Of a DNA stretch of 64,000 bases, positions 12,301 to 39,461 are shown piece by piece (within the stretch, counting starts at the first letter, position 1; every line of letters starts with the position of its first letter). The translations under genes and the position numbers were made by a program. Below the pieces are notes generated by a model. It searched no databases, had not been told where the DNA came from, and saw only the letters and a list, made by a program, of their open reading frames with translations. The DNA lies in assembly GCA_030697505.1 (NCBI GenBank), contig JAUYPX010000026.1, positions 53,322 to 117,321 on the forward strand, written 5' to 3'. The DNA is from Nanobdellota archaeon. GTDB lineage: Archaea; Nanobdellota; Nanobdellia; Woesearchaeales; GW2011-AR9.

Positions 12301-12309
12301 TTTTTTCAG

Positions 12310-22016: not shown

Positions 22017-23180
22017 TTGTGGTTACCTATGGATTGGAAAGTGCCGTTATTTAAAACCTATAATGACAATGATGACCTAGCGGCAGTCAGTTCTGTTATA
22101 CGTCGAGGGACCTATTGGGCTATAGGGCCGGAGATCCAAGAGTTTGAAAATAAGATTGCGCCATTCATTGGAAAAAAATATGCGCTTTCTTTTAACTCTG
22201 GAACTTCTGCCTTGCATGCTCTTCTAGAAGCATACAACATAAAAGGAAAAGAAGTGATCGTACCTTCATTTACCTTTATAGCTACTGCCAATGCAGTACT
22301 GCTTGCCGGCGGAATCCCCGTTTTCGCGGAATCAGAAGATACCACCTTTGGGTTGGATGCAGAAGATGTTGAGCGAAGGATTACGAAAAATACGGTTGCT
22401 GTGATGCCTATCCATTACGGTGGTTGTGTAGCTAGAGATATCGAAAAAATTCGGGATCTTTGTGTTCAGAAGGGGCTTCTCCTGATAGAAGATGCTGCCC
22501 AATCATTCGGAGCGGCCATGAACGGCACTAAAGCCGGCTGCTTTGGCGATGCTGCGATGTTCAGCTTTTGTCAGAATAAAGTTATTACCACTGGCGAAGG
22601 AGGAGTAATAGTTACTGACTCTCAAAAGCTCTATGAGAAGCTAAAATTACTAAGGTCTCATGGGCGGGTCGAGGCAACCCAGGATTACTTTTCTCATATC
22701 GGGGATAACGAATATGTAGAAGCAGGATATAATTTTAGAATGCCAAGCATTTCTGCGGCTTTAGGATTATCACAATTAAGAAAATTTGCAGTGCTACAGG
22801 AGAAGCGAAGGCATAATGCCTCAATTTTAGATTGTGAACTTGGTAAGATAGATCCGCGCCTTCTTCGCATACCTTTTAGATCAGGCCGCTTTGAACAGGT
22901 ATATCAGATGTATACGCTCTTACTGGAAAATAAAATAATCCGGGATGGATTGCAGAAATTCCTGGAGCAGAAAGGCATCATGTCTAAAATTTATTTTACG
23001 CCAGTGCATCTTAAAGAGTTATATATCAAGAGATCAGGATATCAGAAAGGCAATCTTCCGCGGACAGAATTATTGTCTGATAGAGTTCTTACCATTCCCC
23101 TCTATGCCGACCTAAGTCCAGATGATCTGCAGTACATCATCAATTCTATTGTTTCTTTCTGCGAAAAGGCGGCCCCATGA
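22017..23180 (+). CDS. DegT/DnrJ/EryC1-family PLP sugar aminotransferase
   Basis: NSGTSALHALL, and the catalytic Lys is retained in FSFCQNKVITTGEGGVIVTD (so not a ColD-type dehydratase). Confidence 0.85.
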   Translation: MWLPMDWKVPLFKTYNDNDDLAAVSSVIRRGTYWAIGPEIQEFENKIAPFIGKKYALSFNSGTSALHALLEAYNIKGKEVIVPSFTFIATANAVLLAGGIPVFAESEDTTFGLDAEDVERRITKNTVAVMPIHYGGCVARDIEKIRDLCVQKGLLLIEDAAQSFGAAMNGTKAGCFGDAAMFSFCQNKVITTGEGGVIVTDSQKLYEKLKLLRSHGRVEATQDYFSHIGDNEYVEAGYNFRMPSISAALGLSQLRKFAVLQEKRRHNASILDCELGKIDPRLLRIPFRSGRFEQVYQMYTLLLENKIIRDGLQKFLEQKGIMSKIYFTPVHLKELYIKRSGYQKGNLPRTELLSDRVLTIPLYADLSPDDLQYIINSIVSFCEKAAP

Positions 23181-24547
23181 CCTTGTCTGATGGTTATTTT
23201 GTGGAGGAAAAAGCAGGCATAAAGGAAGTTATGTCGGTGATAAATCATAACAGCATCAGGATGGTTATCGTGGCAGATCCTACGCGCAAATTGATAGGGG
23301 TCATTACCGATGGCGATATCCGCAGGGCTATCTTAAAGGGTTTTTCCATCAACGATCCTGTCGGCCTGATAGTGAATAGGGCCCCTTTTTTTGCTGCGGC
23401 AGATACTCCTCCGCAGGTACTTATTGAACAGTTTAGAAAAGAACGATACTTTGGAATTCCAATTGTTGATAAAGAAGGAAAGGTCATTGATATCGCCTTT
23501 CCTGATTCTGGCACCTTTTCTTTTTTGAGCGATAACCTACAAAAATCGCGCCGTCTTGAAAAGATACTGGTGATCGGCGGCGGAGGATACATCGGAAGTA
23601 ATCTCGTCCGGAGACTTCTTAAGCAGAGCTACACCGTAAGAGTTTTAGATAAGTTCATGTATGGTGAACAATCCTTAGCAGATATCCGAAATGATCCCAA
23701 ATTAGAAGTGGTCAATGGAGATACCCGGCATCTGGAAATACTAAGCCAAAGCATCCAAGATGTTGATGCGGTAGTTCATCTGGCAGAATTAGTTGGTGAC
23801 CACGCCTGTTCCATCAATACTAAAGTGACGCAGGATATCAATTACCTGGCCACTTCGTTGGTCGCATCTGTCTGTAAGCATTATCAGATCAATCGCTTGG
23901 TATATACTTCTTCTTGCAGTGTTTACGGTGGATCTGAAGGTAATGAATTACTCTCTGAGAATTCAATGTTAAATCCTATTTCTCTTTATGCTAAGATGAA
24001 AGTGAATTCAGAGCAAGCATTGATAGCTATGGCGGACAAAAATTTTGGCCCTACCATCCTTAGGCTTGCTACAGTATATGGATGGTCAGACCGCCCACGA
24101 TTTGATCTGGTAGTCAATACTCTAGCCGTCAAAGCATTGCAAGAAGGAAAAATCACCTTATTTGGCGGAGATCAATGGAGGCCAAATGTGCATGTGGCAG
24201 ACGTCGCCAAGGCCATCCAGCTGGTGCTGGAAGCCCCTTTTGATCTTGTCGCCAATCAAATATTTAATGTGGGATCTGAAGATCAAAATTATACCATCTC
24301 TCAGCTAGGGGACATCATTAAAGCGGAGATCCCTACTGCCTCGATCGAGGTACATTCAGAATTAACTGATAAAAGAAATTATAAAGTTGATTTTTCAAAG
24401 ATAAGAAACCAGCTTATTTTTAAGCCTGATTTTCAGATAGCCCATGCTGTCGCTGAAATCTCTAAGGCCTTTCAAGATAATAAAGTAGGAGACTATCTTA
24501 ACCCTATATACCATAATCATAAATTTCTTCAAGAAAAACTTTCCTAA
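23177..24547 (+). CDS. CBS-pair domain fused to an extended-SDR NAD-dependent epimerase/dehydratase
   Basis: N-terminal about 120 aa have two CBS-like repeats (VIVADPTRKLIGVITDGDIRRAIL...GIPIVDKEGKVIDI). They are followed by VIGGGGYIGSNLVRRLL and YAKMK. Confidence 0.7.
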   Translation: MTLSDGYFVEEKAGIKEVMSVINHNSIRMVIVADPTRKLIGVITDGDIRRAILKGFSINDPVGLIVNRAPFFAAADTPPQVLIEQFRKERYFGIPIVDKEGKVIDIAFPDSGTFSFLSDNLQKSRRLEKILVIGGGGYIGSNLVRRLLKQSYTVRVLDKFMYGEQSLADIRNDPKLEVVNGDTRHLEILSQSIQDVDAVVHLAELVGDHACSINTKVTQDINYLATSLVASVCKHYQINRLVYTSSCSVYGGSEGNELLSENSMLNPISLYAKMKVNSEQALIAMADKNFGPTILRLATVYGWSDRPRFDLVVNTLAVKALQEGKITLFGGDQWRPNVHVADVAKAIQLVLEAPFDLVANQIFNVGSEDQNYTISQLGDIIKAEIPTASIEVHSELTDKRNYKVDFSKIRNQLIFKPDFQIAHAVAEISKAFQDNKVGDYLNPIYHNHKFLQEKLS

Positions 24548-24548
24548 G

Positions 24549-24643
24549 TTTTAGTTGAGGACAATAGTTCTGCATATCTTTTCTTTTGAAAAGTCACGAA
24601 CGAAGTGACTTGAAATTTCTCCTCAACTAAAGTTTGGAAGACC
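24549..24643. terminator. Nested inverted repeats between convergent genes (bidirectional terminator candidate)
   Basis: Outer arms TAGTTGAGGA (24552-24561) and TCCTCAACTA (24620-24629). Inner perfect hairpin AAGTCAC-gaacga-AGTGACTT (24591-24611), with a T-run on the minus-strand side. Confidence 0.5.
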
Positions 24644-24650
24644 TGGATCA

Positions 24651-26513
24651 TTATGTATTAATTATGTCTTCCATTATTTTGCCAGTTTCTGTCGGATCCA
24701 ATACCTCATAAATAGTCACATCTTCATCTTGATACCTTACTACTGCAAATGTAGATATATCTCTTTGCATCAGCTGCTTTTCATAAGGGCCGATGATAAT
24801 GTAATCTAACTTAAAAATAGGAGTTAACTCTTCCCAATTTACCGGTAAGGCGTGATAAGAATCTTTAATCTTCTGTTTAAATTCTGGCGGCATATAACAT
24901 CCAGTATTTGAAAAGAAAGCCTCGAAGGTGATGAGAGAAGAAACTGTCTCTTCATAAGTTGAATAATTGAATTCTTTTTTTCCCCCTTCGAGATACTGTT
25001 TTAAACTATCTCGAGTAGAAGGACAGGGCTTATGTAAGAATACAAAGTTTTCTGTCGAAACATTAAGAAGCCGATATGCTACTAATCTTCGCATTATAAC
25101 TTCTGAAATTGAAACTGATTCTCCTCGAGCACTAGGCACGTAGTTCTGGTTATGTGTATATATGGGAACTAAAAGGATCACATCCGAACTTAAGGTTAAG
25201 ACCACCTCATCAGGATCAGTATTCTCTGTTAGCCACGTAAACGCGTTCCGCTGGTAATCAGGAAGAGAGTAAGAGGAGTACATAGTTGTAGCAAATGCCA
25301 CCTGCCAAATAAGCCCAAATAAAAGGAAGAAAATCATAATCATTATTGGAAACTTCTGTACCATCTTTATCTTGGTTTGGCTAGACCATAAACTCATAGC
25401 ATGAACTATAGTCAAGATCAGTACCGGCCAAACCGCAGCCGAGAGCCATTGCCGATGATCGAGCGAATAGCCGGTTAATACTTGTATATTCATAACTGCC
25501 AGGCTGGAAAATAACAAAGTGATTATAAAGAAAAAATTTTCCTTAGATTGTCCTAATTGTTCAACTCTTTTGTATGAGTAGTAACTATAACCTATGTAAA
25601 AGGCCGCCACGACTAATAAAAGCGCCGAATAAGGTAGGTCTGGAAAGTGGGTAAATTTTGCTCCACTTAATCTAAGAAGCAGAGCTGTTTTCTCGCCCAA
25701 ATTATGGCGTGTAAAAAGTAAAAAATTAGTTATTCCAAAGGAGAACACAATTAATAAATAAGTCCCTATTTTCAATAGGCTATTTTTTCTCAGAACCGTA
25801 AAAGTAAGTAATAAAATTATGATGGCCATGACGGCATAGACAGTCCAATAATAGAAATAAGTAAAAAACAATAAGCCGCCGCTTATACCGCTCAAGAATA
25901 CATATTTCCATTCTCTCTTCTGAAGTAAAAGTAATAAGAATAACAAAGCTAAAGCAAAGATAATAAAGTTAAAAAGAACCGGATAAAATCGAGAAAAATA
26001 TCCTATCGGCTGAGCAATTTTATGGGTTAGGAAATAAAACAGGTTGGTTGCGGGGAAATATAACAGCGGCGCAGCCATGCAAGAGATTTTTTTATTTGAA
26101 GTTAATCGAAAAGCAATTGCATACACTAATAATGAGCCTATGAAAGGGAATATGAAAAAAGAAAAAATGTATATTGGTGTAAGCCCGCCTAAAATTATAC
26201 CTAAGCCTCCTAAAACCATGGCTGGCAAAGGTCCTGCGTGAGAAGGAATTGTTTTGTCCTGCCATTCCCATATTGTAGACCTTGGAATCAAGTGCCCTTC
26301 TATAACATCATGCACATAACCAGCATAAAGCGCCTCATCAGTTAATCTACCGCCAACACCCTTCACGACAAGCGGTAAATATTCTACGCCTTCGTCTTGA
26401 AGTAGAGGTATCAGTATATGCGGTAAGAAAAAAATACTTCCAACTAGAAAAGCCACTAATATTCCATAACGATGTTCTAAAATTACTTTTAATATTTTAT
26501 TAACAGATTTCAT
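24651..26513 (-). CDS. Polytopic membrane protein, PMT_2/ArnT-like GT-C glycosyltransferase candidate, paralog A
   Basis: About 14 TM helices. First-loop acidic motif TDEALYAGYVHD plus SHAGPLPAMVLGG (hPPL-like), as in GT39/GT83. Paralog of 32685..34541. Confidence 0.45.
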   Translation of the reverse strand: MKSVNKILKVILEHRYGILVAFLVGSIFFLPHILIPLLQDEGVEYLPLVVKGVGGRLTDEALYAGYVHDVIEGHLIPRSTIWEWQDKTIPSHAGPLPAMVLGGLGIILGGLTPIYIFSFFIFPFIGSLLVYAIAFRLTSNKKISCMAAPLLYFPATNLFYFLTHKIAQPIGYFSRFYPVLFNFIIFALALLFLLLLLQKREWKYVFLSGISGGLLFFTYFYYWTVYAVMAIIILLLTFTVLRKNSLLKIGTYLLIVFSFGITNFLLFTRHNLGEKTALLLRLSGAKFTHFPDLPYSALLLVVAAFYIGYSYYSYKRVEQLGQSKENFFFIITLLFSSLAVMNIQVLTGYSLDHRQWLSAAVWPVLILTIVHAMSLWSSQTKIKMVQKFPIMIMIFFLLFGLIWQVAFATTMYSSYSLPDYQRNAFTWLTENTDPDEVVLTLSSDVILLVPIYTHNQNYVPSARGESVSISEVIMRRLVAYRLLNVSTENFVFLHKPCPSTRDSLKQYLEGGKKEFNYSTYEETVSSLITFEAFFSNTGCYMPPEFKQKIKDSYHALPVNWEELTPIFKLDYIIIGPYEKQLMQRDISTFAVVRYQDEDVTIYEVLDPTETGKIMEDIINT

Positions 26514-26609
26514 TTTCGAATAGGATTATATTGTTTTTCACCATATCATATAAAAACTTTTGCCCCTGAATTTCTTGCTTAAAAGTTATTTAAAATGTCT
26601 CTACAAAAA

Positions 26610-27812
26610 TCATCTATCTTGAGCTGTAAAAATAACCTTGGGATCCCATACTTTAGATTCCGGTTTAGATTCCGGCCTGATCAACCCTGACAACGCTTGG
26701 TGTTCAATTAATTTCTGATAAATCAGTTCAGCGCCTTTATTATTTCCTTTCTTATTCCAATGGGGATTTAGCGTCCAATATAAATCATCTTTTTCATCGT
26801 GCGCTAACAATCCGGGCAGGAGATCGATAACCACTATATTTTCTTCTTCAGCCCACTTTAAAAATATTTTATTTGGCTTAGCAAAATCATCATAGGCTTT
26901 ATTGGTAGCTGACCCTTCGTTAATTATATCTTTTTGCAGATCAGCATAAACCTGGAATTTTGCCGGGATAAAGACTATAGCAAAAGGAATATTGTTTTCC
27001 TCCGTGAATTGGTGCATTTCTTTGATTAAGGTAAAAGTCCTCTCCAACTTTAAATTGGTATCCTCGGTATAATTAACTTCATAAATATTAGAAATTCCGT
27101 CCCGATTATAAATTGTATCGCCTCCTACTAATTTCCCCAGCTTTGGGCCCATGATATTAACGGCGGTTCTTTCCGTCAGCCGGTAAGAATCTAAATTATT
27201 AAATAAAAAATTTCTAAACAGTTTCAATGGTTTTTGCTTGCTTTTTCTTTTAACGACTAACTGGCCTTCAGGATTAACTTCCCGTTCGCCTGAGACCATA
27301 TTATCGTCAAAGTCATTGGGGTAAAAATGCAGTAAAACCATATCTGGCTTCAATTTTATCCCTCTGCTTTTAAGGTACAACAATTCTTGATCCGTCCCGT
27401 ATCCAGGTACGCCTGCTTTCATAACTTGAAAATTTTTACCATTGCTATTCTCATTTAGCCTAACTTCCAATTGTTTAAGGAAGGTTTCATCTAATTCTGT
27501 GCCGTAAGCTCCCCAAACAAAAGAGTCGCCTAAGGCCAGTATCCTAAAGTCATCAATGTTTTTTTCAGAATATTCACGGTCATTCATCCCATCTGAATTG
27601 ATTTTAAATTTAGTTTTAAATTCTGGCTTGATAAGTTCCCCACTTATCCCTGGGACAATTTTATAGTCCAATAAATCATCATTTTCATATAAGCCATCTG
27701 GATAACCATACAGTGCGGACACCCCTGATATCCGCACCCCTATTTCCAAAAAGACTAAACACACCATAGTAGTGACCAAAAGTAAAAGAATATTAGACAG
27801 TAACTTGTTCAT
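26610..27812 (-). CDS. Membrane-anchored SGNH/GDSL-type hydrolase (esterase or O-acyl transferase-like)
   Basis: Single N-terminal TM, then the block-I motif ILALGDSFVWG. Confidence 0.6.
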   Translation of the reverse strand: MNKLLSNILLLLVTTMVCLVFLEIGVRISGVSALYGYPDGLYENDDLLDYKIVPGISGELIKPEFKTKFKINSDGMNDREYSEKNIDDFRILALGDSFVWGAYGTELDETFLKQLEVRLNENSNGKNFQVMKAGVPGYGTDQELLYLKSRGIKLKPDMVLLHFYPNDFDDNMVSGEREVNPEGQLVVKRKSKQKPLKLFRNFLFNNLDSYRLTERTAVNIMGPKLGKLVGGDTIYNRDGISNIYEVNYTEDTNLKLERTFTLIKEMHQFTEENNIPFAIVFIPAKFQVYADLQKDIINEGSATNKAYDDFAKPNKIFLKWAEEENIVVIDLLPGLLAHDEKDDLYWTLNPHWNKKGNNKGAELIYQKLIEHQALSGLIRPESKPESKVWDPKVIFTAQDR

Positions 27813-27888
27813 TTTCTCTCCTAAAAAATAACATTATTTAAATATTTCGCATCACCGGGCTCGTGAAAAATGAGAATACGTAACTTCC

Positions 27889-29649
27889 TCAATCCTTCGC
27901 AACCGTCTCACTATCCCACTTATCTTTAGGGTTTTCCTCTCGTTTAATAAGATACTTTCCCATCATTACGTAATCTATTCCCGTACCCATCATGCATTTA
28001 TACGCGTCATGCGGCGTACAGACAATCGGTTCTCCGCGGATATTAAATGAAGTGTTAATCAAAATAGGGACCCCGGAAAGTGTTCCAAATTCCTTAATAA
28101 GATCGTAGTAGGAAGGATTTTGTATTCTCCGAATAGTTTGCAGCCGTCCTGAACCGTCTACGTGAGTAACCGCAGGGATTTTCTTCCGCCATTCTTTCTT
28201 GACTGGATAGACCATCAGCATATAATCAGTTGGTTCAGGAATAGGCTGATCGCAGTCAAAATAGGTTAAGGCGTCGTCCTCGCAGACTACTGGAGCAAAA
28301 GGCCTGAATTTTTCCCGATGCTTAACTTTCTGATTTAAGATTTCCTGCATTTTTTTATTGCAAGGGTTGGAAAGGATACTCCTGGTTCCTAACGCTCTTG
28401 GTCCCCATTCCATTCTTCCTTGGAACCATCCTACCACGTTGTTTTCGTAAATTAGTTTAGCAGTAGTGGAGACCAGTTCTTTCTCATCGGCAAAGGCAGC
28501 GTAGGTAACTTTGTTGCTATCCAAAAAATTCTTAATTTCTGAGTTAGTAAAAGAAGGACCAAGATACGCAGTAGTTAAAGTGAAATTCCGCGGGTGATTG
28601 AGAATAGTATGATAAATATATGAAGCAACACCAATGCTATTTCCGCCATCAGTAGCATTAGGCTGGATCCATATTTTTTTAAAAGGAGTGTTACGAAGAA
28701 TCTTACCGTTAGCTACACTGTTAAGAGCGACTCCTCCACCAATAATGAGGTTATCGCATTTGGTAACCGCATGAAGATGCTTCAGCATTTTGAACAGCAC
28801 TTCTTCGGTTATCATTTGCAAGGCAGCAGCGATATCTTTATGGCGCTGAGTTACTTCAGATTCTGGTTTTCTGATTTTACCCTCTAGCAGCTTGCATAAT
28901 CTCCTGGAAGGCATCTTATCTCCATAATGATAGGTAAAATAACCCATATCCATGCGGTAGCTTCCATCATCTTTAATATCGATGATCTTCTTTAGCTGGT
29001 GATAGTATTTATTTTCAGTTTTATTCATATTGCCGTAAGGGCTTAAACCCATTACTTTATATTCGGAGTTGTTGACGCTGAATCCCAAATACCCAGTTAT
29101 GGTGGAATAAAGAAGTCCCAGAGAGTGCGGGAACTTAATTTCTTTCATCAAATGGATTTCGTTTCCTTCTGCCAATCCATAGGAAGTAGTGGTCCATTCC
29201 CCTACCCCATCTACAGTAAGCACCGCTGCTTTATCGAACGGGCTCACCAGAAATGAACTGGCAGCGTGGGCAAGATGGTGATGTATAAAAAAAACATTTC
29301 CTTGGTACTGTAATTTTTTTCGTATGGTTTTCATCACTCGCAGCTTTTGATTGATCCAAGAAGGAAGAGAACTGACAAAAGTTTTGAAACTAAAAGGAAA
29401 CATTTCTAAATGCTGGGAGAGGATACGCTCGAACTTGAGAAAGGGCTTTTCGTAAAATCCGACAAAAGCAACCTCGTTAATAGTAATATGCTGGCTTTCT
29501 AAGCAATACCTGATTGCATTAAGAGGGAAAGAGGCATCATGTTTCTTACGAGTGAATCGTTCTTCTTCTGCTGCCGCCACAATGACTCCATCTTTCAGCA
29601 ACGCCGCAGAGGAGTCATGATAATAACAGCTGATTCCTAGTACGTACAT
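27889..29649 (-). CDS. NodU/CmcH-family carbamoyltransferase
   Basis: Canonical N-terminus MYVLGISCYYHDSSAALLKDGVIVAAAEEERFTRKKHD. 586 aa. Confidence 0.85.
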   Translation of the reverse strand: MYVLGISCYYHDSSAALLKDGVIVAAAEEERFTRKKHDASFPLNAIRYCLESQHITINEVAFVGFYEKPFLKFERILSQHLEMFPFSFKTFVSSLPSWINQKLRVMKTIRKKLQYQGNVFFIHHHLAHAASSFLVSPFDKAAVLTVDGVGEWTTTSYGLAEGNEIHLMKEIKFPHSLGLLYSTITGYLGFSVNNSEYKVMGLSPYGNMNKTENKYYHQLKKIIDIKDDGSYRMDMGYFTYHYGDKMPSRRLCKLLEGKIRKPESEVTQRHKDIAAALQMITEEVLFKMLKHLHAVTKCDNLIIGGGVALNSVANGKILRNTPFKKIWIQPNATDGGNSIGVASYIYHTILNHPRNFTLTTAYLGPSFTNSEIKNFLDSNKVTYAAFADEKELVSTTAKLIYENNVVGWFQGRMEWGPRALGTRSILSNPCNKKMQEILNQKVKHREKFRPFAPVVCEDDALTYFDCDQPIPEPTDYMLMVYPVKKEWRKKIPAVTHVDGSGRLQTIRRIQNPSYYDLIKEFGTLSGVPILINTSFNIRGEPIVCTPHDAYKCMMGTGIDYVMMGKYLIKREENPKDKWDSETVAKD

Positions 29650-29658
29650 GGGATCCCC

Positions 29659-29910
29659 TCAAAATTGTTTATAATATTTCTCACGCTCTTGTTTTTTGAT
29701 ATTGAGATCGGACCAATAAGAATTTACTTTTTTAGAAGTTTTTCTTTCCAGGAAATGTTTTCCAAAAATACGTGCAACGAAAGAAGTAAGACCTACTCCC
29801 ACCAGGTATACCAGGAGCAAGAGCATGGTATTTACAAAGGCAGTGATTTTTTCTCCAAACCCTTTCATGCCCTTCCCTACCGATTTCAAGAATAGTTTTG
29901 CCGCAGTCAT
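29659..29910 (-). CDS. Small membrane protein (83 aa) in a conserved-looking trio next to the carbamoyltransferase
   Basis: One central TM (LLLLVYLVGVGLTSFVA). 4-bp overlap with the next small ORF. Confidence 0.35.
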   Translation of the reverse strand: MTAAKLFLKSVGKGMKGFGEKITAFVNTMLLLLVYLVGVGLTSFVARIFGKHFLERKTSKKVNSYWSDLNIKKQEREKYYKQF

Positions 29911-30110
29911 AATACAAACTTTTGAATAAGACCTCCCAGAGCGGCGACGATCAAGATCGCTGCGAATACTTTCAGAAGAGCGGAAGTGGAATACGAAATC
30001 TTCCCTAATGAAGTGAGAATGTAAAACACTATCAAGGAAGACAAAATATAGCTGATGAAAAATCCTACTTTTACTCCTACTTTTTCAAGAGAGGAAGTAT
30101 GCATGTTCAT
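29907..30110 (-). CDS. Small two-TM membrane protein (67 aa)
   Basis: Two hydrophobic helices. Translationally coupled to the neighbouring small ORFs. Confidence 0.35.
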   Translation of the reverse strand: MNMHTSSLEKVGVKVGFFISYILSSLIVFYILTSLGKISYSTSALLKVFAAILIVAALGGLIQKFVL

Positions 30111-30166
30111 AAACTCTCTTTAACTTGATTTCTTTATAAATTTTTAGAAACAAGGGCATAAATGAT

Positions 30167-30382
30167 CTAGAAAAGAGCATAAATGAATGGCGAGATAGCG
30201 CTGCTTTGTCCAAAGATTATCAAAACGCCCACAAAGACGAGCATGATTATAATGGGAGTAAGCCACCAGGCTTTCCGTTCCTTTAAAAAGTCCCAAATCT
30301 CAGCTAGAAATGATTTATTTCCTTCCATCTTACCGTAAAAAAGAGAGGTTATTTTTAAACGTTTCGACTCCGCGCAACTCAT
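30167..30382 (-). CDS. Small membrane protein (71 aa) with a KxWW..PII motif, DUF5989/SxtK-like by recollection
   Basis: LKERKAWWLTPIIIMLVFVGVLIIFGQSSAISPFIYALF is a pattern I recall from short proteins that co-occur with carbamoyltransferases. Confidence 0.4.
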   Translation of the reverse strand: MSCAESKRLKITSLFYGKMEGNKSFLAEIWDFLKERKAWWLTPIIIMLVFVGVLIIFGQSSAISPFIYALF

Positions 30383-31744
30383 CTACTTTTGCTGGAAAGG
30401 ATCAGGAGGATATGCTGCCGCTGCAGGAAGTTTGATCATTTCTTCTTCTACCAATGATGAAAATAAAACATCTGCGGCCAGCTTATGCCCTTCCCGATTG
30501 ATATGGCCATCGTAAGGGAAATACAGCGGAAAAACAGATGATTCCTGGAAAGGTTCCAGCATCTCAACATATATTATACCATTCTCTTCAGCATATTTCT
30601 TCACTTTTTGCTGTGGAGCATCACTCTGCACGGCGCCTGGACTAAATCCAAACAGATGTCTTCCCAAACTCCATTCGTCGGGAGAAACTTGCACTCCGTA
30701 AGGATAGAGAGTTAAAATAAAAGTGATGTCATTCTTTTTACACAATTCACTAATGAGAGTTATGTAATGAAACGTTCTATCCCAATGTTCCTCTTCATCC
30801 TGCACCGGCAGATCTCTGAGAATAGCATACCGGTCAGTTTTGGGATCTCCTTGCGGCATGGTATTCTGCTTTCCTTCCTTTTTAACAAATCTGGAATCGA
30901 TTAAATTCACCTTATCAAATATAAAACGATTTAGCTGCATCTTGTTTCTGATTTTATATAAGAGCGTGATTTGTTCTTTAATTCCGGAAACACGAATTAT
31001 ATTTCCTTCTTGGTCAAATTCTGCAGCTTGTTCTCGAAAGTAATCATCTTGGATGTCGCTCACATCCAAGTTTAGAATGACGATATCGGGCTGGTAAGAT
31101 AGCCCTTTATATTTGAGCAAGAGGTATTCTAAAGTGGGGGAGTATGAGGTTGCGCCAGCGTTGATGACATCAGCATTGACTCCTTTTGCGTTTAGTTTCT
31201 GTTGTAATACCTCGCTAAAAGTCTCTTCTTTTTCCACCCCATAACCCCAGGTCATGGAGTCGCCTAACATCAAAATCCTGAGATCAAATCGTTCTTTTGG
31301 TAAAATTTCATCGTCACGAAAACCTTCAGCATTAATCTTCACCTTAGTGTCCCATTCAAAGGTAGTAAAGCGCGAATGGCAGTTAGGCGTATATGAATGT
31401 TCGTAGACTGCATCATCCTGCTTGCAGCTTTCGGGAAAAGTAACTTGTAAAATTATCTCAAAAATAACTGCGCAGAGAAAAGTAGTAATTACTAAGATAG
31501 CGATATTCTGCAGATATTTTCGTATTTTGTGATGCTTGAATAATGATGCCGCAGAACCAATCGAAATGACCGCAAAGAGTAATACTAAGGTTCCCATCGT
31601 AATAGCGGTATATTTTATGATGGAAAAAAATATGACCATGCTTTGATTGTAGCTTTCTGGGATAGAGATAAATCGTAAACCTACTGCGATAATGAAAACA
31701 CCAAGAAGTACTGAGATCATTTCACTGATGGTAATTTTACGCAT
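30383..31744 (-). CDS. Polytopic N-terminus plus SGNH/GDSL-type hydrolase domain
   Basis: About 3 N-terminal TM helices, then LRILMLGDSMTWGYG. Confidence 0.6.
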   Translation of the reverse strand: MRKITISEMISVLLGVFIIAVGLRFISIPESYNQSMVIFFSIIKYTAITMGTLVLLFAVISIGSAASLFKHHKIRKYLQNIAILVITTFLCAVIFEIILQVTFPESCKQDDAVYEHSYTPNCHSRFTTFEWDTKVKINAEGFRDDEILPKERFDLRILMLGDSMTWGYGVEKEETFSEVLQQKLNAKGVNADVINAGATSYSPTLEYLLLKYKGLSYQPDIVILNLDVSDIQDDYFREQAAEFDQEGNIIRVSGIKEQITLLYKIRNKMQLNRFIFDKVNLIDSRFVKKEGKQNTMPQGDPKTDRYAILRDLPVQDEEEHWDRTFHYITLISELCKKNDITFILTLYPYGVQVSPDEWSLGRHLFGFSPGAVQSDAPQQKVKKYAEENGIIYVEMLEPFQESSVFPLYFPYDGHINREGHKLAADVLFSSLVEEEMIKLPAAAAYPPDPFQQK

Positions 31745-31747
31745 GCA

Positions 31748-32638
31748 TCACCGAGAAGCGGAACTATTTTCCGGCTTTCTTCCAAAAGTTATCCAATAGC
31801 CTCCTTCGCGATTAGTGCTCCAGATCCAGCCAAGCTGTTTGTATAATTGCACGGGGAAGGAGGGGGGATTTTCTACTTTACTCCAGACTCCGCCAATATC
31901 AATAGCAGATTCAGAGAATAGTGAAGTTGAAGGGACGGTATGATTAAATTGTATGCCATTTTTTGTAAACCAATCGATAACTTCTCCCACCGTGTGGGTA
32001 GTTTCATGAGGGTGTAAATATTGGTCATTCCACCAGCCGCGAGCTCGTTCTTTATCTTCTACCTCTCCTATCTGCATCCTAATATATTTGTCTTTAACCG
32101 CATTGTTATTTTTAAAAATAGTTTTGGCTAAAAAAATACGTTTTTTTAAGAGAAGCCTCCCATACGAATTGTACAACCCAATGGCAACATGACCACCAGG
32201 TTTGACTAGCTTCATAATATTTTTAAACGCTCGGTAAGCATCTCCAGTATGATGCAGTACGCCCAAGCAGAGCACATAATCAAATTGCTTTCCAATAGCA
32301 TCAATCTGCTCTGGATCAAGAATGTCTACTTTTTTAAGATTCCAAGAATCTAATCCTAGTTTTTCTTGTAAGGCTTTGGCCTTCTTTAAGGAACTATCAG
32401 AAAAATCAATACCCCAGACGCATTCTCGCCGCAAGGAGAGAAAAGCAGAAAGTTGGCCGGTACCAGTACCGACATCGATAACAGAAGCATTTTCCGGAAT
32501 ACTCCGGTCAAGTATTTTAGCAAATGAATAAGCAGCTAAAGAAAGATCTTCCTTACTGTTAAATCTGGCTAAGTCGTAGTCTGGAAAAGGCGTTTTATTG
32601 TAAAACCCTTGTACTAGGTTGCCTATCTTTGTGGTCAT
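31748..32638 (-). CDS. Class I SAM-dependent methyltransferase
   Basis: VIDVGTGTGQLSAF motif I and post-I acidic residue (WGIDFSD). Confidence 0.75.
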   Translation of the reverse strand: MTTKIGNLVQGFYNKTPFPDYDLARFNSKEDLSLAAYSFAKILDRSIPENASVIDVGTGTGQLSAFLSLRRECVWGIDFSDSSLKKAKALQEKLGLDSWNLKKVDILDPEQIDAIGKQFDYVLCLGVLHHTGDAYRAFKNIMKLVKPGGHVAIGLYNSYGRLLLKKRIFLAKTIFKNNNAVKDKYIRMQIGEVEDKERARGWWNDQYLHPHETTHTVGEVIDWFTKNGIQFNHTVPSTSLFSESAIDIGGVWSKVENPPSFPVQLYKQLGWIWSTNREGGYWITFGRKPENSSASR

Positions 32639-32684
32639 GTTAATAAGTCTTGAAGAATGTATTTATAACATTTATGCTACTGCA

Positions 32685-34541
32685 CTATTTATCTACCTTG
32701 TAAACGGTAAATTCGGCGTTGCTATACACTAGCTGAGCATAGTCTTCTATTTCACGATGAGAAATGTTTTTTTCATAAGGACCCAAAATAATGTAATTAA
32801 CAACGTATCTGTGGGTTAATTGCTCCCACTCTTCTGGAAGATTGGCATATGTTTTGAAAACTCCTTCTCTGAAATCCTTGGGAATGGTGCATCCTTTACT
32901 TCTGGGAAATGATGCCTCAAAAGTGAGAAGATGGGAAAATGCTTCTTCAAATAAAGAAGAATTATATTTCCCATCCTTAGTGCGTTCAAAACTCATCATT
33001 TCACTAAAAGCGCAAGGATTATTGAGAAATAGGATGTTTTCCTCGGAAACGCCCAACAGTTTATAAGCGATCAATCTTCGTGCGATTATTTCTGGAATGG
33101 GAATCGGTTCTACCACTGCATTGGGTATAAAATTATTGTTGTGAGTATAAACTGGAACAAGGAGGACCATTTCCGAGCTTAACGAGAGGATCACTTCATC
33201 TTTTGCAGTATGGTGGTTCAGCCATTCAAATAATTCTACTTGAGGACCAGAAAGTGTGTACACTGAGTAAGTATTATAAGAAAATGTTACCTGCCAAATA
33301 AGTCCAAATAAGAGCAGTAAGCCGATAAAGATAAAACTTGAGGATTTAATTATTTCTTTCAAAATCTCTCTTTTGAAAAATTTTTTTTCTGTAAAATTCA
33401 AAATATATATCCCTGCCAGAACCAGTGCCGGCCATATAGCTGTGGTCAACCAATGGCGAGGATTGATAGTGTACCCCATAATCACTTGCACATTCATGGC
33501 AACTATTCCTGCAAAAATTAGTATCAGCAGAAAATAAAAACTAGTTTCATTCTTTTCTTCTTTATTATTTCTGTCTTCAGACCTTTCAGATCTTTCACAA
33601 GCAGCGTATGTTAATACTATCACTATACTCAGAAGGAAAAGAGTTATGGGCCAATCTGGACTTCTAGTAAAGATAGGGTTAAGCCGGTGTAGTATTTCAG
33701 CCCGGTTAGCAATGGTGCTAATTGAGTTCAAGAAAAACGTTGTTCCTATTACTGCAGTTACTAGCCCAGATAAGGTTATTTTTTTGAACAGAGTAAAATC
33801 TTTTCTTAAAAGAGAGGTTATCCATATCAAACTTATAAAAATTATGTAAAAAGTCCAATAATAAAAATAGGTGTAAAACAATAATCCTCCTAAAATTCCG
33901 CTGATGAGAGCAGCTTTCCATTTCTGTTTCTTTAAAAGCCACCAAACCGCAAGCAAAGTTATAGCAAAAATAGGAAAATCTACTAAAACTGGATAAAAGC
34001 GGGAAAAGTAACTTATAGGTTGAACAATCTGATCGTTGAAGAATTTAAGCATATAAGTGGGAGAAAAGAACAGCAAAGGAGGAGCGATAAGAGAGAGCGT
34101 TTTGTTTTTAGTCAGCAGATATGAAAGGGCATATATCAATAATGAGCCTATGAAGGTAAAAAAGAAATAAGAAAAAATATAGGTGTTTACCACTCCACCC
34201 AATAACCAGGACATCACTCCTAAAATAAGGGAAGGAAAAGGAGAACCTGCATGCGATAAGATCGAAGTATCTTTCCATTCTAGGATATTAGAACGGGGGA
34301 TGAGATGCCCTTCTGCTGCTTCCTGCACATAGGCAGCGTAAAAAACTTCATCAACGCCTCGTGCATCCACACCTTTCACCACCAGAGGAGAATATATCCT
34401 AGAATCCTCCTGGAGCAAGGGAATGAGCAAGCTAGGCAAAAGAAAAATAAGCCCAATCAGCAATGATACTATTAATGCCGCTCGATGTTCCTTTATCTTT
34501 TTGTAATGATGGTGCAATCGTTCTTTCATTTTTATAAACAT
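32685..34541 (-). CDS. Polytopic membrane protein, PMT_2/ArnT-like GT-C glycosyltransferase candidate, paralog B
   Basis: N-terminus parallels 24651..26513 (LPSLLIPLLQEDSRIYSPLVVKGVDARGVDEVFYAAY...SHAGSPFPSLILGV). Confidence 0.45.
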   Translation of the reverse strand: MFIKMKERLHHHYKKIKEHRAALIVSLLIGLIFLLPSLLIPLLQEDSRIYSPLVVKGVDARGVDEVFYAAYVQEAAEGHLIPRSNILEWKDTSILSHAGSPFPSLILGVMSWLLGGVVNTYIFSYFFFTFIGSLLIYALSYLLTKNKTLSLIAPPLLFFSPTYMLKFFNDQIVQPISYFSRFYPVLVDFPIFAITLLAVWWLLKKQKWKAALISGILGGLLFYTYFYYWTFYIIFISLIWITSLLRKDFTLFKKITLSGLVTAVIGTTFFLNSISTIANRAEILHRLNPIFTRSPDWPITLFLLSIVIVLTYAACERSERSEDRNNKEEKNETSFYFLLILIFAGIVAMNVQVIMGYTINPRHWLTTAIWPALVLAGIYILNFTEKKFFKREILKEIIKSSSFIFIGLLLLFGLIWQVTFSYNTYSVYTLSGPQVELFEWLNHHTAKDEVILSLSSEMVLLVPVYTHNNNFIPNAVVEPIPIPEIIARRLIAYKLLGVSEENILFLNNPCAFSEMMSFERTKDGKYNSSLFEEAFSHLLTFEASFPRSKGCTIPKDFREGVFKTYANLPEEWEQLTHRYVVNYIILGPYEKNISHREIEDYAQLVYSNAEFTVYKVDK

Positions 34542-34602
34542 GTACCTTAAAGCTTAACTCTCATAAAGAACAAAACTTAACCTCAATTTTTAAAACCTAC
34601 CT

Positions 34603-35322
34603 TCAAGAATCACTTTTCTTTGCCACAATGACCACTTGGGTAAAAAAATCTTTAGCTCCAAAGTAATAGTCTACCACCGAAAAACCGGCTTTACTAAATA
34701 TCTCTGTTGCATGCTTCTTAGAATTGATCCTGGATACTTCTGGAGGATGTAGCTGTATATTTCTTCGTAAGATTTTATTGAGAATGAAGTGAAGCGCATC
34801 AAGAGTGTTGGTAGTAGACCCGAAGGTTGGCGGCCAGAATATTACCAACTTGCCGTCATCTCGCAAAATTCGCTTAAATTCAGAAAGGATAACCTTTATT
34901 TCATCTTCACTAAAATGTTCCATAACCCCTTGATTATAGATGCCATCAAAAGTTTTGTTTTCGAAAGGAAGATTCAAAATATCCCCTAAAATCACCTTAC
35001 ATTTATCTCCATGATTTTTCTTATAAATTTCTAATGCATTGGAAGAATTATCAAGAGCCGTTATGGTAGCATAATCCACTATGCATATATCTGCATACCC
35101 TCCTCCGCAACCGGCATGAAGAAGTGTTGAACCTGAAGAGAAGTTTTTTTTAATAAAATGGTCAAATATATTGGTCATAATATATTTTCGATAAAACTTT
35201 GCTATCCGGTCATAGATATTGTTACTTACCTTATTTTTTTCTGACCAGTACGAGTCCCACCCCTGGGCTGGTTTATCATCGCTGTTCTCTTTTTTTTGTT
35301 TTTCTTTTTTTGCTGAGACCAT
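34603..35322 (-). CDS. SAM-dependent methyltransferase
   Basis: LLHAGCGGGY motif I and Methyltransf_11-like layout. Confidence 0.7.
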   Translation of the reverse strand: MVSAKKEKQKKENSDDKPAQGWDSYWSEKNKVSNNIYDRIAKFYRKYIMTNIFDHFIKKNFSSGSTLLHAGCGGGYADICIVDYATITALDNSSNALEIYKKNHGDKCKVILGDILNLPFENKTFDGIYNQGVMEHFSEDEIKVILSEFKRILRDDGKLVIFWPPTFGSTTNTLDALHFILNKILRRNIQLHPPEVSRINSKKHATEIFSKAGFSVVDYYFGAKDFFTQVVIVAKKSDS

Positions 35323-35387
35323 GGCCTAATTTTTCATATAATTTTTTTGTAGGAAGTCTTTTTATGCTTTTTGGTATAAAATGCTCC

Positions 35388-37148
35388 CTACTTCTCGATC
35401 TTAAACAAAAGCACGAATACGAATGGTATTGTAAGTAAAGCTAACAACAAATCTAAATATAAAAATAAAAGCCCAATCATATGAAAAATCTTATTACTAC
35501 CCTGCTTGGGATATTCATCAATATTCAAATCCGAATACTTCCATCCTATCGAAGATCCCCAAAAGACATGGGTCAGATCTATGCTTTGAAATATCGCGGG
35601 AGGTACGGCTATAGTTCCTTGATGAACAAAAAAATGATGATTTGCATCTACCTCACCAACATATCTTAAATGTTGTTTCAAATAATCAGATAAACCTTCA
35701 GCAAATGAATTTACCCGATCATAATCTTCACGTTTCCATCCGCAGGTTGTGTCTCCGCTGCACTCAATGTAATACAATGGCACTTCTACTTTGGGAGAAG
35801 CAGAAGTTCCAATTTCGTTTAGTAATGCTTGGAAATGCATTCCGTTCAAATAATGTCGCTCGTGTAATATCCAAGAATAACTTCCATAGTAAATGCGTGG
35901 ATCCATAATGATAATAGCATTTTTAGGAATATTCTCGACAACATATTTCCTCAGTTCCATGCTGGCTGTTTTTTTAGATATAATTGATTGAAAGTAAATA
36001 GAGGATATAGCCATTATCATAAAGATAATAATAAAAATTACCAACGCCGAACGCAGATTAAACCTTGTAATAAAGATGCGGCCTTTTTCTATAGAATAAC
36101 CGGCAAACAAACTTAAAACTAAAGGAACCCAGAGATAATGTGTAGCACTGCCCGTAATTCCACCTACATAAAACAGTAAAAGCAACGCTGAAAGCAGTAA
36201 TAGGAACGGGCCAGATCTTCTCTGAGGAATCACCAAGAATACTCCAATTATCCCTAATGTTACTATGATCGGATCTGGTATAAAAAACTTAGCAAAAAAA
36301 CGTTTTAAAAAACCCAGCATGGTAGAAAAATTCCATGGATCTACTTGGGAAGTTTCCGGATGAAACTGTGCTCCGATACCCAGCAACGTAGAAACAGTAT
36401 TTTCTGTTTTTCCATTATTCTTAAATTCTAAATAATTGTACATGATAGTCGGCATGAGAAGCAAGAAGACTATAGCTAGACATCCTAATATCATCTTAAG
36501 CAGCTTTATATCGAATATATTTTTATCAAATAAACTTTTATCCTGTTCTTCTTTATAATCTTGACCACTTTTAAGATATCCTTTAGTGTGGAGAAAAAAA
36601 ACCAATGCATACACTGGCACAAATAGAAGTGGTAAAATTTTACAAAGAACAGCCAAAGTCAGGCAAGCGGTAGAAAGATAAAGATAATTCCTCTTTCCGT
36701 CAAGGAAAAATAAGAAAAAGTACATGCTTAGTAAAGCAAAAAAGAAAGCAACCATGTCTGATTCAGTATTATTTTCCAGCACATACCCGGAAAGAGCAAA
36801 TAAAAAGGAGCTGAATAAAGCTGCCTTTCTATTCTCAAATAGCTTTAAAGAGCATAGATAAATAAGGATAACCGTGAGAGAACCAAAAATAATAGAAGGA
36901 AATCTAGTAGAGATTGCATTTACCTCACCAAATAAGATATAGCCAAGATCAGTAAGGTAAGAAAAAAGTGGGCCACCTTCTACCGTACTTAAACGCTGCG
37001 CTGAGATTATCTTCCAGGGAAGAAGAGAATAAACAATCTCATCCGGGACAATTTCAACCGCCTGAGCAACAATTAAGCGTAAAATGAAGGCTAGAATAAC
37101 TACCACAAAAAGAATCAGAAGTGTTTTTTTTATTTTCATGATTATCAC
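35388..37148 (-). CDS. PMT_2/ArnT-like GT-C glycosyltransferase (GT39/GT83-like)
   Basis: First-loop VPDEIVYSLLPW and GGPLFSYL (hPPLyy-like). About 13 TM helices. Confidence 0.55.
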   Translation of the reverse strand: MIIMKIKKTLLILFVVVILAFILRLIVAQAVEIVPDEIVYSLLPWKIISAQRLSTVEGGPLFSYLTDLGYILFGEVNAISTRFPSIIFGSLTVILIYLCSLKLFENRKAALFSSFLFALSGYVLENNTESDMVAFFFALLSMYFFLFFLDGKRNYLYLSTACLTLAVLCKILPLLFVPVYALVFFLHTKGYLKSGQDYKEEQDKSLFDKNIFDIKLLKMILGCLAIVFLLLMPTIMYNYLEFKNNGKTENTVSTLLGIGAQFHPETSQVDPWNFSTMLGFLKRFFAKFFIPDPIIVTLGIIGVFLVIPQRRSGPFLLLLSALLLLFYVGGITGSATHYLWVPLVLSLFAGYSIEKGRIFITRFNLRSALVIFIIIFMIMAISSIYFQSIISKKTASMELRKYVVENIPKNAIIIMDPRIYYGSYSWILHERHYLNGMHFQALLNEIGTSASPKVEVPLYYIECSGDTTCGWKREDYDRVNSFAEGLSDYLKQHLRYVGEVDANHHFFVHQGTIAVPPAIFQSIDLTHVFWGSSIGWKYSDLNIDEYPKQGSNKIFHMIGLLFLYLDLLLALLTIPFVFVLLFKIEK

Positions 37149-39437: not shown

Positions 39438-39461
39438 TATTTTTAATCTCCCTGCTCGCGA

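Follow-up and report, generated by a model that had tools for sequence, protein, structure and literature searches.

The window analysed here is a stretch of 64,000 nt on contig JAUYPX010000026.1 (GCA_030697505.1) of a Nanoarchaeota (DPANN) archaeon, and our study concerns the interval 24651-34541 within it. This interval contains nine ORFs, all on the minus strand, which lie where the original prediction had placed them (Table 1). A carbamoyltransferase and three tiny membrane ORFs are situated between two pairs of genes, each comprising a large polytopic protein and an SGNH protein, as had been described. Because all genes are located on one strand, the near-symmetry ascribed to this module holds for the gene order only, and there is no segmental repeat, whether tandem or inverted. 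Of the methyltransferases reported as interleaved, one lies within the interval and the second just outside. The surrounding genes form a glycan island, in agreement with the glycan setting that had been suggested.

Table 1 Features of the studied interval and its surroundings (positions within the 64,000-nt window).
Feature	Position	Strand	Description
Wzx/MATE-like Polysacc_synt protein	13664-15151		~10 kb from the GT-C region
DegT aminotransferase	22017-23180	+	Pfam assignment; convergent with B620
CBS-epimerase/dehydratase	23177-24547	+	Pfam assignment; convergent with B620
B620	24651-26513	-	620 aa, polytopic; B-clade paralog in the same GT-C-fold family as A618
SGNH400	26610-27812	-	400 aa, SGNH/GDSL, 1 N-terminal TM; SGNH453 paralog
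CT586	27889-29649	-	586 aa, soluble NodU/CmcH/TobZ-type carbamoyltransferase; Carbam_trans_N + Carbam_trans_C
s83	29659-29910	-	83 aa, small membrane protein; proposed as C-terminal half of an SxtJ encoded in two parts
s67	29907-30110	-	67 aa, 2 TM; proposed as N-terminal half of an SxtJ encoded in two parts
DUF5989 small membrane protein	30167-30328 (probable gene; ORF 30167-30382, 71 aa)	-	53 aa, PF19451
SGNH453	30383-31744	-	453 aa, SGNH/GDSL, 3 N-terminal TMs; catalytic domain predicted outside
MT296	31748-32638	-	296 aa, soluble class I SAM methyltransferase
A618	32685-34541	-	618 aa, polytopic; A clade of a GT-C-fold family without annotation
MT239	34603-35322	-	Second soluble SAM methyltransferase, just beyond the interval; Methyltransf_11 E 4e-16
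Conserved core upstream of A618	35388-42342	-	Pfam and NCBIfam results, TM layout
PMT_2 GT-C	35388-37148	-	Part of the core
96-aa protein	37149-37439	-	Part of the core
665-aa membrane protein	37440-39437	-	Part of the core
AsnB-type amidotransferase	39462-41348	-	Part of the core
GT2, 2 C-terminal TMs	41407-42342	-	Part of the core

In pairwise alignment, A618 and B620 proved to be paralogous along their full length (608 aa aligned at 42% identity, E 2e-147), and the N-terminal motif quoted for them (KGV..DE.YA.Y...SHAG.P.P..LG) is present in both. The AF2 model and hydropathy indicate approximately 11 TM helices, a positively charged N-terminus predicted inside and a 55-residue loop after TM1, which corresponds to the 8-13 helices, inside N-terminus and long first outer loop of GT-C proteins. 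Foldseek matched the model, which is of moderate confidence (pTM 0.77, pLDDT 74), to solved GT-C enzymes with TM-scores of ~0.45-0.49 over 320-430 aligned residues. The proposed GT-C-like loop motif was found to be conserved family-wide: residue 59, in the first outer loop, is D/E in 138 and residue 60 E/D in 115 of 144 members, with D59 and E60 present in both A618 and B620, and Y63 is conserved in 118. Furthermore, about a dozen polar residues at predicted outer-leaflet helix ends are conserved in this diverse set of 144 members, A618 and B620 among them. A family-wide near-invariant histidine (alignment position 355) is kept in A618 and replaced by Q in the B clade. Orthologs of A618 in other genomes are 63-79% identical to it.

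The family comprises ~2,300 cluster representatives at 50% identity (571 with E <= 1e-30), some of which are fused to GT2, GT4, SAM-methyltransferase or, in one member, GtrA domains. A618 and B620 themselves showed no Pfam or NCBIfam match and no PDB sequence match, and they stay below the threshold of every existing GT-C sequence family. Neither matched PMT_2/ArnT-like PF13231 at the Pfam gathering threshold; only 5 of 73 diverse family members matched this model weakly, and an hhalign comparison with the PMT_2 protein of the window itself gave a probability of 17%. A weak profile match to DPY19 covers the last TM helix and an 'FxWLxxNT' stretch. STT3/AglB/PglB and DPY19 are GT-C enzymes that carry an outer domain at the C-terminus; the two proteins belong to neither Pfam STT3 nor Dpy19, and a WWDYG motif (W[WYF]D[YWFN]G) was absent from all window proteins and all 144 family members. 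A role as sequon-reading N-oligosaccharyltransferase is therefore unlikely, and we rejected STT3/AglB/PglB identity based on the motif. Predicted structure, the conserved D-E motif and the gene fusions together support an assignment of A618 and B620 as GT-C-fold glycosyltransferases. Their family is sizeable and without annotation, yet of a known enzyme kind.

The core upstream of A618 shows an identical gene order in five other loci (L005, L010, L011, L012 and L013), and all B-type orthologs examined (L001-L004, L008, L009) are followed by the same convergent DegT/CBS-epimerase pair. The A-type gene is followed by MT296 in three loci (L005, L011 and L012), while MT239 is variable upstream of it (present in L011 and L012; absent from L005, L010 and L013). 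GT2-like and AsnB-like genes also lie beside distant family members, from DPANN archaea to Saccharibacteria and other bacteria. The arrangement resembles the three-component GtrA/GtrB/GtrC-type systems for extracytoplasmic glycosylation with a GT-C transferase, for example of family GT136 (PMC11127046, PMC8035078), in that a GT2 with two C-terminal TMs, similar to polyprenyl-phosphate-sugar synthases, accompanies polytopic GT-C-fold proteins in a surface-glycan locus, and in the fusion of A618/B620 family members to GT2 or GtrA. Two such proteins of the window, GT2_311 and GT2_310, have PgfS, ArnC, AglJ and Dol-P-hexose transferase as best NCBIfam matches. In contrast to Gtr-type systems, the GT-C proteins of the window are in no annotated family, and at least four further genes (AsnB-like amidotransferase, 665-aa membrane protein, 96-aa protein, PMT_2 GT-C) are conserved with A618. 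Moreover, the system is archaeal, and the carrier is therefore presumably dolichol. No GtrA match was detected among the scanned window proteins, which include one Wzx/MATE-like flippase. Based on the fusions and the adjacent two-TM GT2s, we infer a lipid-phosphate-linked donor and transfer at the outer face.

The six genes SGNH453-DUF5989-s67-s83-carbamoyltransferase-SGNH400 form a cassette. CT586 matched Carbam_trans_N with 260.9 bits (E 3e-77, cut-off 24) and Carbam_trans_C with 244.7 bits (E 5e-73, cut-off 27); identity with the NodU equivalog itself was rejected (169 bits, cut-off 1000). Its orthologs in DPANN cassettes are 73-89% identical, and the Ensifer protein 47%. Carbamoyltransferases of such families use ATP and carbamoyl phosphate, methyltransferases use SAM. 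Given these cofactors and since no TM segments were predicted in CT586, MT239 or MT296 (Methyltransf_31/12/11/25, E down to 1e-18), carbamoylation and methylation are expected on the cytoplasmic side. The extracytoplasmic O-carbamoyl and O-methyl steps that had been suggested are hence not supported; only the GT-C and SGNH domains are predicted to face outward.

The small protein of the DUF5989 family scored 80.8 bits against its model (cut-off 27, E 7.6e-23). Its 480 homologs are mostly 53 aa long, for which reason the shorter gene in Table 1 is the probable one. Proteins of this family adjoin carbamoyltransferases in DPANN archaea and bacteria. We propose that s67 and s83, which overlap by 4 nt, represent an SxtJ split into two genes. 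The C-terminus of s83 (...SYW...YYKQF) resembles that of bacterial SxtJ (...SYW...YFKQF), and an HMM built from s83 homologs could be aligned with residues 82-138 of RefSeq-named SxtJ; the gathering threshold of PF19588 was not reached, with one of six s83 homologs matching weakly (17.3 bits, cut-off 24.4, E 0.008). For s67, no similarity to the SxtJ sequence was detected, and its assignment is based on position and topology; its location upstream of s83 and of the carbamoyltransferase is conserved in five loci (L005, L011, L026, L028 and L030). The DPANN locus L026 reads CarA-CarB-s67-s82-CT-SGNH-DUF5989 and thus lies beside carbamoyl-phosphate synthetase, L028 reads s67-s84-CT-DUF5989, planctomycete plasmids carry carbamoyltransferase-SxtJ-DUF5989 within exopolysaccharide (EPS) loci, and in Ensifer two ORFs resembling SGNH453 lie near SxtJ-DUF5989-CT. 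The cassette behaves as an independent unit, found in further DPANN archaea and in bacteria without any accompanying gene of this GT-C family (for Ensifer, absence according to a BLAST screen only). It is widespread and its function putative.

The closest known counterpart is sxtI-sxtJ-sxtK-sxtL of the saxitoxin cluster, encoding a carbamoyltransferase, two small proteins and a GDSL lipase (PMC2679770). Protein sizes in this set and in the bacterial carbamoyltransferase-SxtJ-DUF5989 trio are similar to those in the window (carbamoyltransferase ~590-610 aa, SxtJ ~135 aa, third protein 53-54 aa, GDSL/SGNH 380-450 aa), SxtK being likened to the DUF5989 protein by size and gene position only. The archaeal cassette differs in the apparent split of SxtJ into genes of 67 and 83 aa, a rotated gene order, the presence of two membrane-anchored SGNH paralogs, and a context of glycan synthesis rather than toxin production.

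SGNH453 and SGNH400 share 27% identity (E 3e-38) and exceed the Lipase_GDSL_2 cut-off of 32.9 with 48.8 and 34.8 bits, respectively. The fold was predicted at a pLDDT of 90. G161-D162-S163 and H414 are invariant in 32 sequences, while SGNH400 carries N in place of the near-invariant triad residue D412. SGNH453 resembles the O-acetyltransferases AlgJ, AlgX and PatB in its membrane-anchored domain, predicted to face outward, and in the best PDB sequence-profile matches of its family, namely AlgJ (E 5e-12), AlgX and PatB1, which cover the C-terminal half with its D-x-H motif. Nevertheless, we rejected membership in such a system. SGNH453 stays below the cut-off of the ALGX model (18.1 bits, cut-off 26.5; SGNH400 27.1 bits), Ser precedes D-x-H whereas the permuted D-H...S order is a feature of AlgX/AlgJ/PatB, and, as to the MBOAT/AT3 partner of such systems, the MBOAT genes of the relatives L003 and L011 have no homolog among the window proteins.

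The two flanking pairs could be taken as two-gene extracytoplasmic modules, in which each GT-C has its own SGNH, for instance to acylate or deacylate the sugar just added, with the carbamoyltransferase in between by chance. This pairing, which the original prediction had assumed, finds some support in the relatives: an A-type gene followed by an SGNH453-type gene recurs in L005, L011, L012 and L030, with an overlap of 4 nt in L030 and with MT296-SGNH453 after the A-type gene and no carbamoyltransferase nearby in L012, and SGNH400-type genes stand immediately upstream of the B-type gene in the window, L004 and L008. In these same three loci, however, the SGNH400-type gene directly follows the carbamoyltransferase; it was never seen otherwise, and B-type genes that occur without carbamoyltransferase lack an SGNH (L001/L009). 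A-type genes lack any SGNH in L010 and L013, no SGNH gene adjoins the distant family members L014-L024, and SGNH453-type genes accompany the cassette without this GT-C family in L026 and probably in Ensifer (L034), where the other ORFs were only compared with window proteins by BLAST. The SGNH genes thus track the carbamoyltransferase more consistently than the GT-C genes, and we regard strict pairing as unlikely, though by no means negligible; due to the direct linkage in L030 and L012, the SGNH may also, or instead, serve the GT-C product. A recent local duplication of a GT-C-SGNH unit followed by rapid divergence, likewise part of the earlier interpretation, has next to no chance of being correct, despite the proximity of the two paralog pairs on one strand. 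The A and B copies form separate clades with 100/100 bootstrap support each, and both clades hold orthologs from the same three genomes; the copies can be ~40 kb apart or on different contigs. The paralogs share 42% and 27% protein identity, and at the DNA level the two halves have in common only patches of 67-76 nt with 73-74% identity. With all genes on one strand, neither a tandem nor an inverted duplication would produce the order GT-C-SGNH ... SGNH-GT-C. The A/B duplication is therefore old, and the layout of two GT-C genes around the cassette, while real, looks like a chance juxtaposition. The observations behind the original prediction were confirmed and their interpretation only in part.

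It is also conceivable that A618 and B620 are GT-C-like in fold without being glycosyltransferases, acting in association with a flippase, as scaffolds or as polymerase/ligase-type proteins, with B620 possibly degenerate in catalysis. Their place outside any sequence family, the weak resemblance of neighbouring PMT_2 proteins to 'flippase activity-associated protein Agl23' and the loss of H355 in the B clade point in this direction. We consider this improbable in view of the acidic loop motif and polar residues conserved in both paralogs, the fusions to GT2, GtrA and GT4 as known for catalytic GT-Cs, and the fact that the structural matches are enzymes. Even less probable, to the point of being remote, is a role of the cassette in making or modifying a small secreted metabolite of the saxitoxin or RiPP type, with no relation to the surrounding glycan genes. 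The saxitoxin cluster does have the identical gene set, and CgnD, the nearest solved structure to SGNH453, comes from the crocagin RiPP pathway, where a carbamoyltransferase is likewise present. Yet CgnD and SGNH453 have only the fold in common (16% identity, no sequence-profile match), no PKS, NRPS, RiPP-precursor or amidinotransferase genes were detected among the scanned window proteins, and archaeal as well as bacterial cassettes are embedded in polysaccharide or glycosylation loci.

We therefore favour the reading that the interval consists of two separately inherited units, GT-C paralogs and a carbamoylation cassette, within a long co-directional surface-glycan gene array, and assign it, jointly with the roles proposed in the following, a probability of roughly 0.6. 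Gene content, paralogy, fold class, motif conservation, age of the duplication and the cassette's independent distribution follow from the data, whereas for these roles we infer donor type, acceptor, membrane side and every catalytic activity. A618 and B620 would reside in the membrane with the N-terminus inside and use the conserved D-E of the first outer loop to transfer a sugar from dolichyl-phosphate-sugar, made by one of the neighbouring GT2s with two C-terminal TM helices, onto a glycan or glycoprotein acceptor at the outer face; the two paralogs are likely to have different donors or acceptors. The DUF5989 protein and the split SxtJ may hold the soluble carbamoyltransferase at the membrane, where it would O-carbamoylate a sugar cytoplasmically from carbamoyl phosphate and ATP, the most plausible substrate being the lipid-linked form. 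After export, the trimming or transfer of ester-type substituents would fall to the outward-facing SGNH proteins. It may further be speculated that the cassette is a hitherto overlooked machine that O-carbamoylates surface glycans across the membrane, analogous to O-acetylation by MBOAT/AT3 and SGNH proteins: carbamoyl groups would be loaded on the cytoplasmic side, cross via the small proteins or the lipid-linked sugar and be placed or edited outside by SGNH proteins, with the A and B GT-Cs installing carbamoylated versus non-carbamoylated sugars. We regard this extension as rather doubtful.

If the favoured reading holds, it is of interest that a sizeable GT-C-fold family recurs in genome-reduced DPANN archaea and CPR bacteria beside GT2 and AsnB-type amidotransferase genes. 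As far as we know, the carbamoyltransferase-SxtJ-DUF5989-SGNH set is familiar only from toxin research, as sxtI-L, where three members are unexplained; on the same reading it would be a widespread unit linked to polysaccharide loci, which suggests that the saxitoxin pathway borrowed this gene set from envelope glycan modification. Ensifer and planctomycetes offer tractable bacterial systems for the roles of the small proteins, and if trans-membrane O-carbamoylation were true, it would provide the first function for SxtJ-, SxtK- and SxtL-type proteins.

The interval under study, 24651-34541, holds nine ORFs, all co-directional on the minus strand, exactly as the original prediction had described. 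Its two large polytopic proteins, A618 (618 aa) and B620 (620 aa), align over their whole length with 42% identity (E 2e-147), which bears out their proposed paralogy. Neither has a match in Pfam or NCBIfam, and a search of PDB sequences with a 12-sequence family profile returned nothing at E <= 10. An exhaustive profile search yielded 2,321 cluster representatives of this family at E <= 1e-3 and 571 at E <= 1e-30. The AF2 model of B620 (pLDDT 74, pTM 0.77) contains about 11 transmembrane (TM) helices, with an alpha/beta domain at the C-terminus, and its top 22 Foldseek matches are all GT-C proteins (E down to 2e-8). In a set of 144 diverse members, an acidic pair (D59 is D or E in 138, E60 is E or D in 115) and a tyrosine, Y63, kept in 118, mark the outer loop that comes first. 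Further conserved residues are E83, R175, Y219, N342, Q344, H355, W427 and E471, while R475 is invariant. The suggested GT-C-like nature of the large proteins is supported by topology, fold matches and the acidic loop pair.

An enlarged family profile matched DPY19 weakly over the last TM helix and a 'FxWLxxNTxxDxV' stretch, and hhalign with the family profile was uninformative, giving a probability of 17% against a PMT_2 protein of the window and 2% against its 665-aa membrane protein. Fold and C-terminal domain matches suggested a divergent AglB; this candidate was dropped, and the family was not filed as an oligosaccharyltransferase, because a WWDYG-like motif is absent from every member checked (144). 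A literature search combining GT-C and DPANN returned nothing relevant. The database protein identical to B620 is a hypothetical protein from a Nanoarchaeota (DPANN) MAG.

Coordinates of features in the window and in loci of other genomes
Feature	Location	Position	Description
A618	window	32685-34541 (-)	GT-C-fold paralog
MT296	window	31748-32638 (-)	SAM methyltransferase
SGNH453	window	30383-31744 (-)	membrane-anchored SGNH/GDSL protein
DUF5989	window	30167-30328 (-) (probable extent; ORF to 30382)	small membrane ORF
s67	window	29907-30110 (-)	small membrane ORF
s83	window	29659-29910 (-)	small membrane ORF
CT	window	27889-29649 (-)	carbamoyltransferase
SGNH400	window	26610-27812 (-)	membrane-anchored SGNH/GDSL protein
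B620	window	24651-26513 (-)	GT-C-fold paralog
HisF fusion	window	5204-6703		HisF-like (His_biosynth) fused to class-I glutamine amidotransferase
GT4 pair	window	11293-13662		GT4 and thymidylate-kinase-like protein
665-aa/96-aa pair	window	37149-39437		polytopic and single-TM proteins
GC dips	window	24001-28000, 32001-38000		GC 0.36-0.37
Cassette in L026	L026	1-7162		CarA - CarB - s67 - s82 - CT - SGNH381 - DUF5989
MBOAT pair	L003	4743-7191		MBOAT and DltD/AlgJ-like partner
MBOAT pair	L011	16709-19151		MBOAT and DltD/AlgJ-like partner

Three small membrane ORFs, including DUF5989 (Pfam, E 7.6e-23), and a soluble carbamoyltransferase (Carbam_trans_N E 3e-77, Carbam_trans_C E 5e-73) lie between the two SGNH genes. 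The near-symmetry noted for this region is one of gene order only, since all genes share one strand and DNA likeness between the halves is confined to patches of 67-76 nt with 73-74% identity. What looks like a mirror layout results from two old paralogs enclosing a cassette that starts and finishes with an SGNH gene (SGNH453 - DUF5989 - s67 - s83 - CT - SGNH400). As to the methyltransferases described as interleaved, one SAM methyltransferase lies within the interval and another just upstream of it.

A recent duplication had been proposed, and the phylogenetic data argue against it. Close homologs fall into two BLAST-identity groups, A (63-79% to A618) and B (61-80% to B620), with 37-44% between them, and both groups form clades with 100/100 bootstrap support in an NJ tree. 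Each clade holds copies from the window and from the MAGs H51-bin025_1 and CAYIEF01; both copies share a contig in CAYIEF01, with some 40 kb between them, and occupy separate contigs in H51-bin025_1. Given fully supported clades and both copies in the same genomes, often far apart, the duplication is old. Position 355 is Q in the B clade (B620, P0002-P0005) versus H in 133 of the 144 members, including A618. It lies in a 'TGY...RHW' stretch, located in the model where two TM helices reach the outer side. Q355 is a candidate specificity or activity change; it may reflect a switch to another donor or acceptor, or else inactivation.

Gene neighbourhoods also loosen the strict pairing of GT-C and SGNH genes that had been envisaged. 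Both do occur together in the window, but SGNH400-type genes are found only where a carbamoyltransferase lies immediately upstream (window, L008 and L004, where the partial upstream ORF is a carbamoyltransferase C-terminus), B-type loci without a carbamoyltransferase (L001/L009) have no such gene, and locus L026 carries an SGNH-type gene without the GT-C family. Every B-type gene faces a convergent CBS-epimerase and DegT pair. Upstream of A-type genes the order is always GT2 - AsnB - 665-aa membrane protein - 96-aa protein - PMT_2 (L005, L010-L013). The segment from MT296 to the carbamoyltransferase (MT296 - SGNH453 - DUF5989 - s67 - s83 - CT) is optional in A-type loci: it is complete in L005/L006 and L011, truncated in L012 and absent from L010 and L013, and in L030 only MT296 is missing, while two unrelated genes interrupt the segment behind the SGNH gene. 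In Saccharibacteria and other bacteria, remote members of the family likewise adjoin GT2-like and AsnB-like genes, with no SGNH or carbamoyltransferase gene nearby.

The 665-aa polytopic protein ('EDEDPWGH' loop motif) and the adjoining Cys-rich 96-aa protein have no Pfam or NCBIfam match, and in all A-type loci their genes are strictly kept between the AsnB-like and PMT_2 genes. The larger of the two proteins could represent a further unannotated GT-C. L003 and L011 encode an MBOAT protein and a 332-346-aa partner with 'FFGSSH' and 'DxxHLN..G' motifs, just past carbamoyltransferase or DegT genes. Homologs of both are absent from the window, so O-acylation capacity differs among closely related genomes. 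Proteins from L009-L011 and L013 (CAYIEF01, CAYRMP01, CAYHVV01), labelled 'uncultured Methanosarcinales archaeon', are 61-93% identical to those of the window, and their genes are arranged identically; the taxonomy assigned to these MAGs looks doubtful.

The cassette also occurs in other DPANN archaea without this GT-C family, namely in L026 and L028 (s67 - s84 - CT - DUF5989). In L026, genes for the small and large subunits of carbamoyl-phosphate synthetase lie directly upstream, which ties carbamoyl donor supply to the cassette, and SGNH381 and SGNH453 share 36% identity (E 8e-69). Among bacteria, exopolysaccharide (EPS) loci of planctomycetes contain a trio that RefSeq names 'carbamoyltransferase - SxtJ family membrane protein - DUF5989 family protein'. 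On an Ensifer megaplasmid, a pair of SGNH453-like ORFs lies some 4 kb from SxtJ - DUF5989 - CT, and the carbamoyltransferase there is 47% identical to that of the window. The C-terminus of s83 ('...SYWSDLNIKKQEREKYYKQF') resembles that of bacterial SxtJ ('...SYWVPKPTPTDPRRYFKQF'), an HMM from s83 homologs aligns with SxtJ residues 82-138, and one s83 homolog has a weak Pfam SxtJ match; s67 (2 TM) and s83 are therefore read as a split SxtJ. For s67 this role is proposed from gene position and topology only: an HMM of s67 homologs found nothing in bacterial SxtJ, and just one of six artificial s67+s83 concatenations gave a weak SxtJ match in a Pfam scan. The gene set of the cassette equals sxtI-J-K-L of the saxitoxin cluster, where sxtI encodes a carbamoyltransferase, sxtJ and sxtK are of unknown function and sxtL encodes a GDSL protein (PMC2679770). 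A literature search for DUF5989 retrieved no papers.

SGNH400 and SGNH453, both membrane-anchored, share 27% identity (E 3e-38). In the SGNH453 family G-D-S163, D230 and H414 are invariant and D412 nearly so; SGNH400 has N at the latter position. In the AF2 model of SGNH453 (pLDDT 90), three TM helices at the N-terminus precede an SGNH domain, which is predicted from charge distribution to lie outside. Over the C-terminal half, the PDB sequence profile of the family matches AlgJ (E 5e-12), AlgX and PatB1. A likeness to CgnD, considered as proof of a functional link between SGNH proteins and carbamoylation, is at fold level only and was kept as a lead.

The proposed setting of glycan decoration agrees with the gene content, as the entire 64-kb window is a surface-glycan island. 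It encodes three GT2 enzymes. Two of these carry a pair of C-terminal TM helices and score best in NCBIfam, always under the family cut-offs, against PgfS, ArnC, AglJ and Dol-P-hexose transferase. Also encoded are a Wzx-like flippase, an AsnB-type amidotransferase and two PMT_2 GT-C proteins, together with DegT aminotransferases, epimerases/dehydratases, C-methyltransferases, UDP-glucose dehydrogenase and a mannose-1-P guanylyltransferase. No tRNA genes, possible markers of integration sites, occur in the window. The GC dips, against about 0.41 in the flanks, coincide with membrane-protein genes and may stem from amino-acid composition or from foreign origin. The HisF fusion lies beside an aminotransferase within the island; HisF-like/glutamine amidotransferase pairs produce acetamidino sugars in other systems. 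A GT4 glycosyltransferase recurs (window, L009, L012, L030) beside a protein of 430-450 aa whose C-terminal domain is thymidylate-kinase-like, the L030 copy of the latter having an additional weak NTP_transf_5 match.

Extracytoplasmic carbamoylation and methylation, as first suggested, are unlikely, the carbamoyltransferase and the methyltransferases being predicted to be soluble. We infer instead that GT2 enzymes would load dolichyl phosphate with sugars and that precursors would be modified on the cytoplasmic side by the soluble AsnB-type amidotransferase, methyltransferases and the carbamoyltransferase, the last of which DUF5989 and the split SxtJ would anchor to the membrane. Once flipped, the sugars would be added to a surface glycan or glycoprotein by both GT-C paralogs, A and B, along with the PMT_2 proteins, and the outward-facing SGNH proteins may edit ester-type substituents. 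The carbamoylation cassette beside the paralogs is widespread, and its role in carbamoylation is putative. The A618/B620 family is new at family level, its enzyme kind (GT-C) being already known. Some members are natural fusions with N-terminal GT4, GT2, GtrA or SAM-methyltransferase domains (P0022, P0084, P0101, P0113, P0158, P0133, P0111), a pattern to be expected of a transferase acting at the outer face in a lipid-linked-sugar pathway (PMC11127046). These fusions are useful Rosetta-stone links for assigning the donor pathway.
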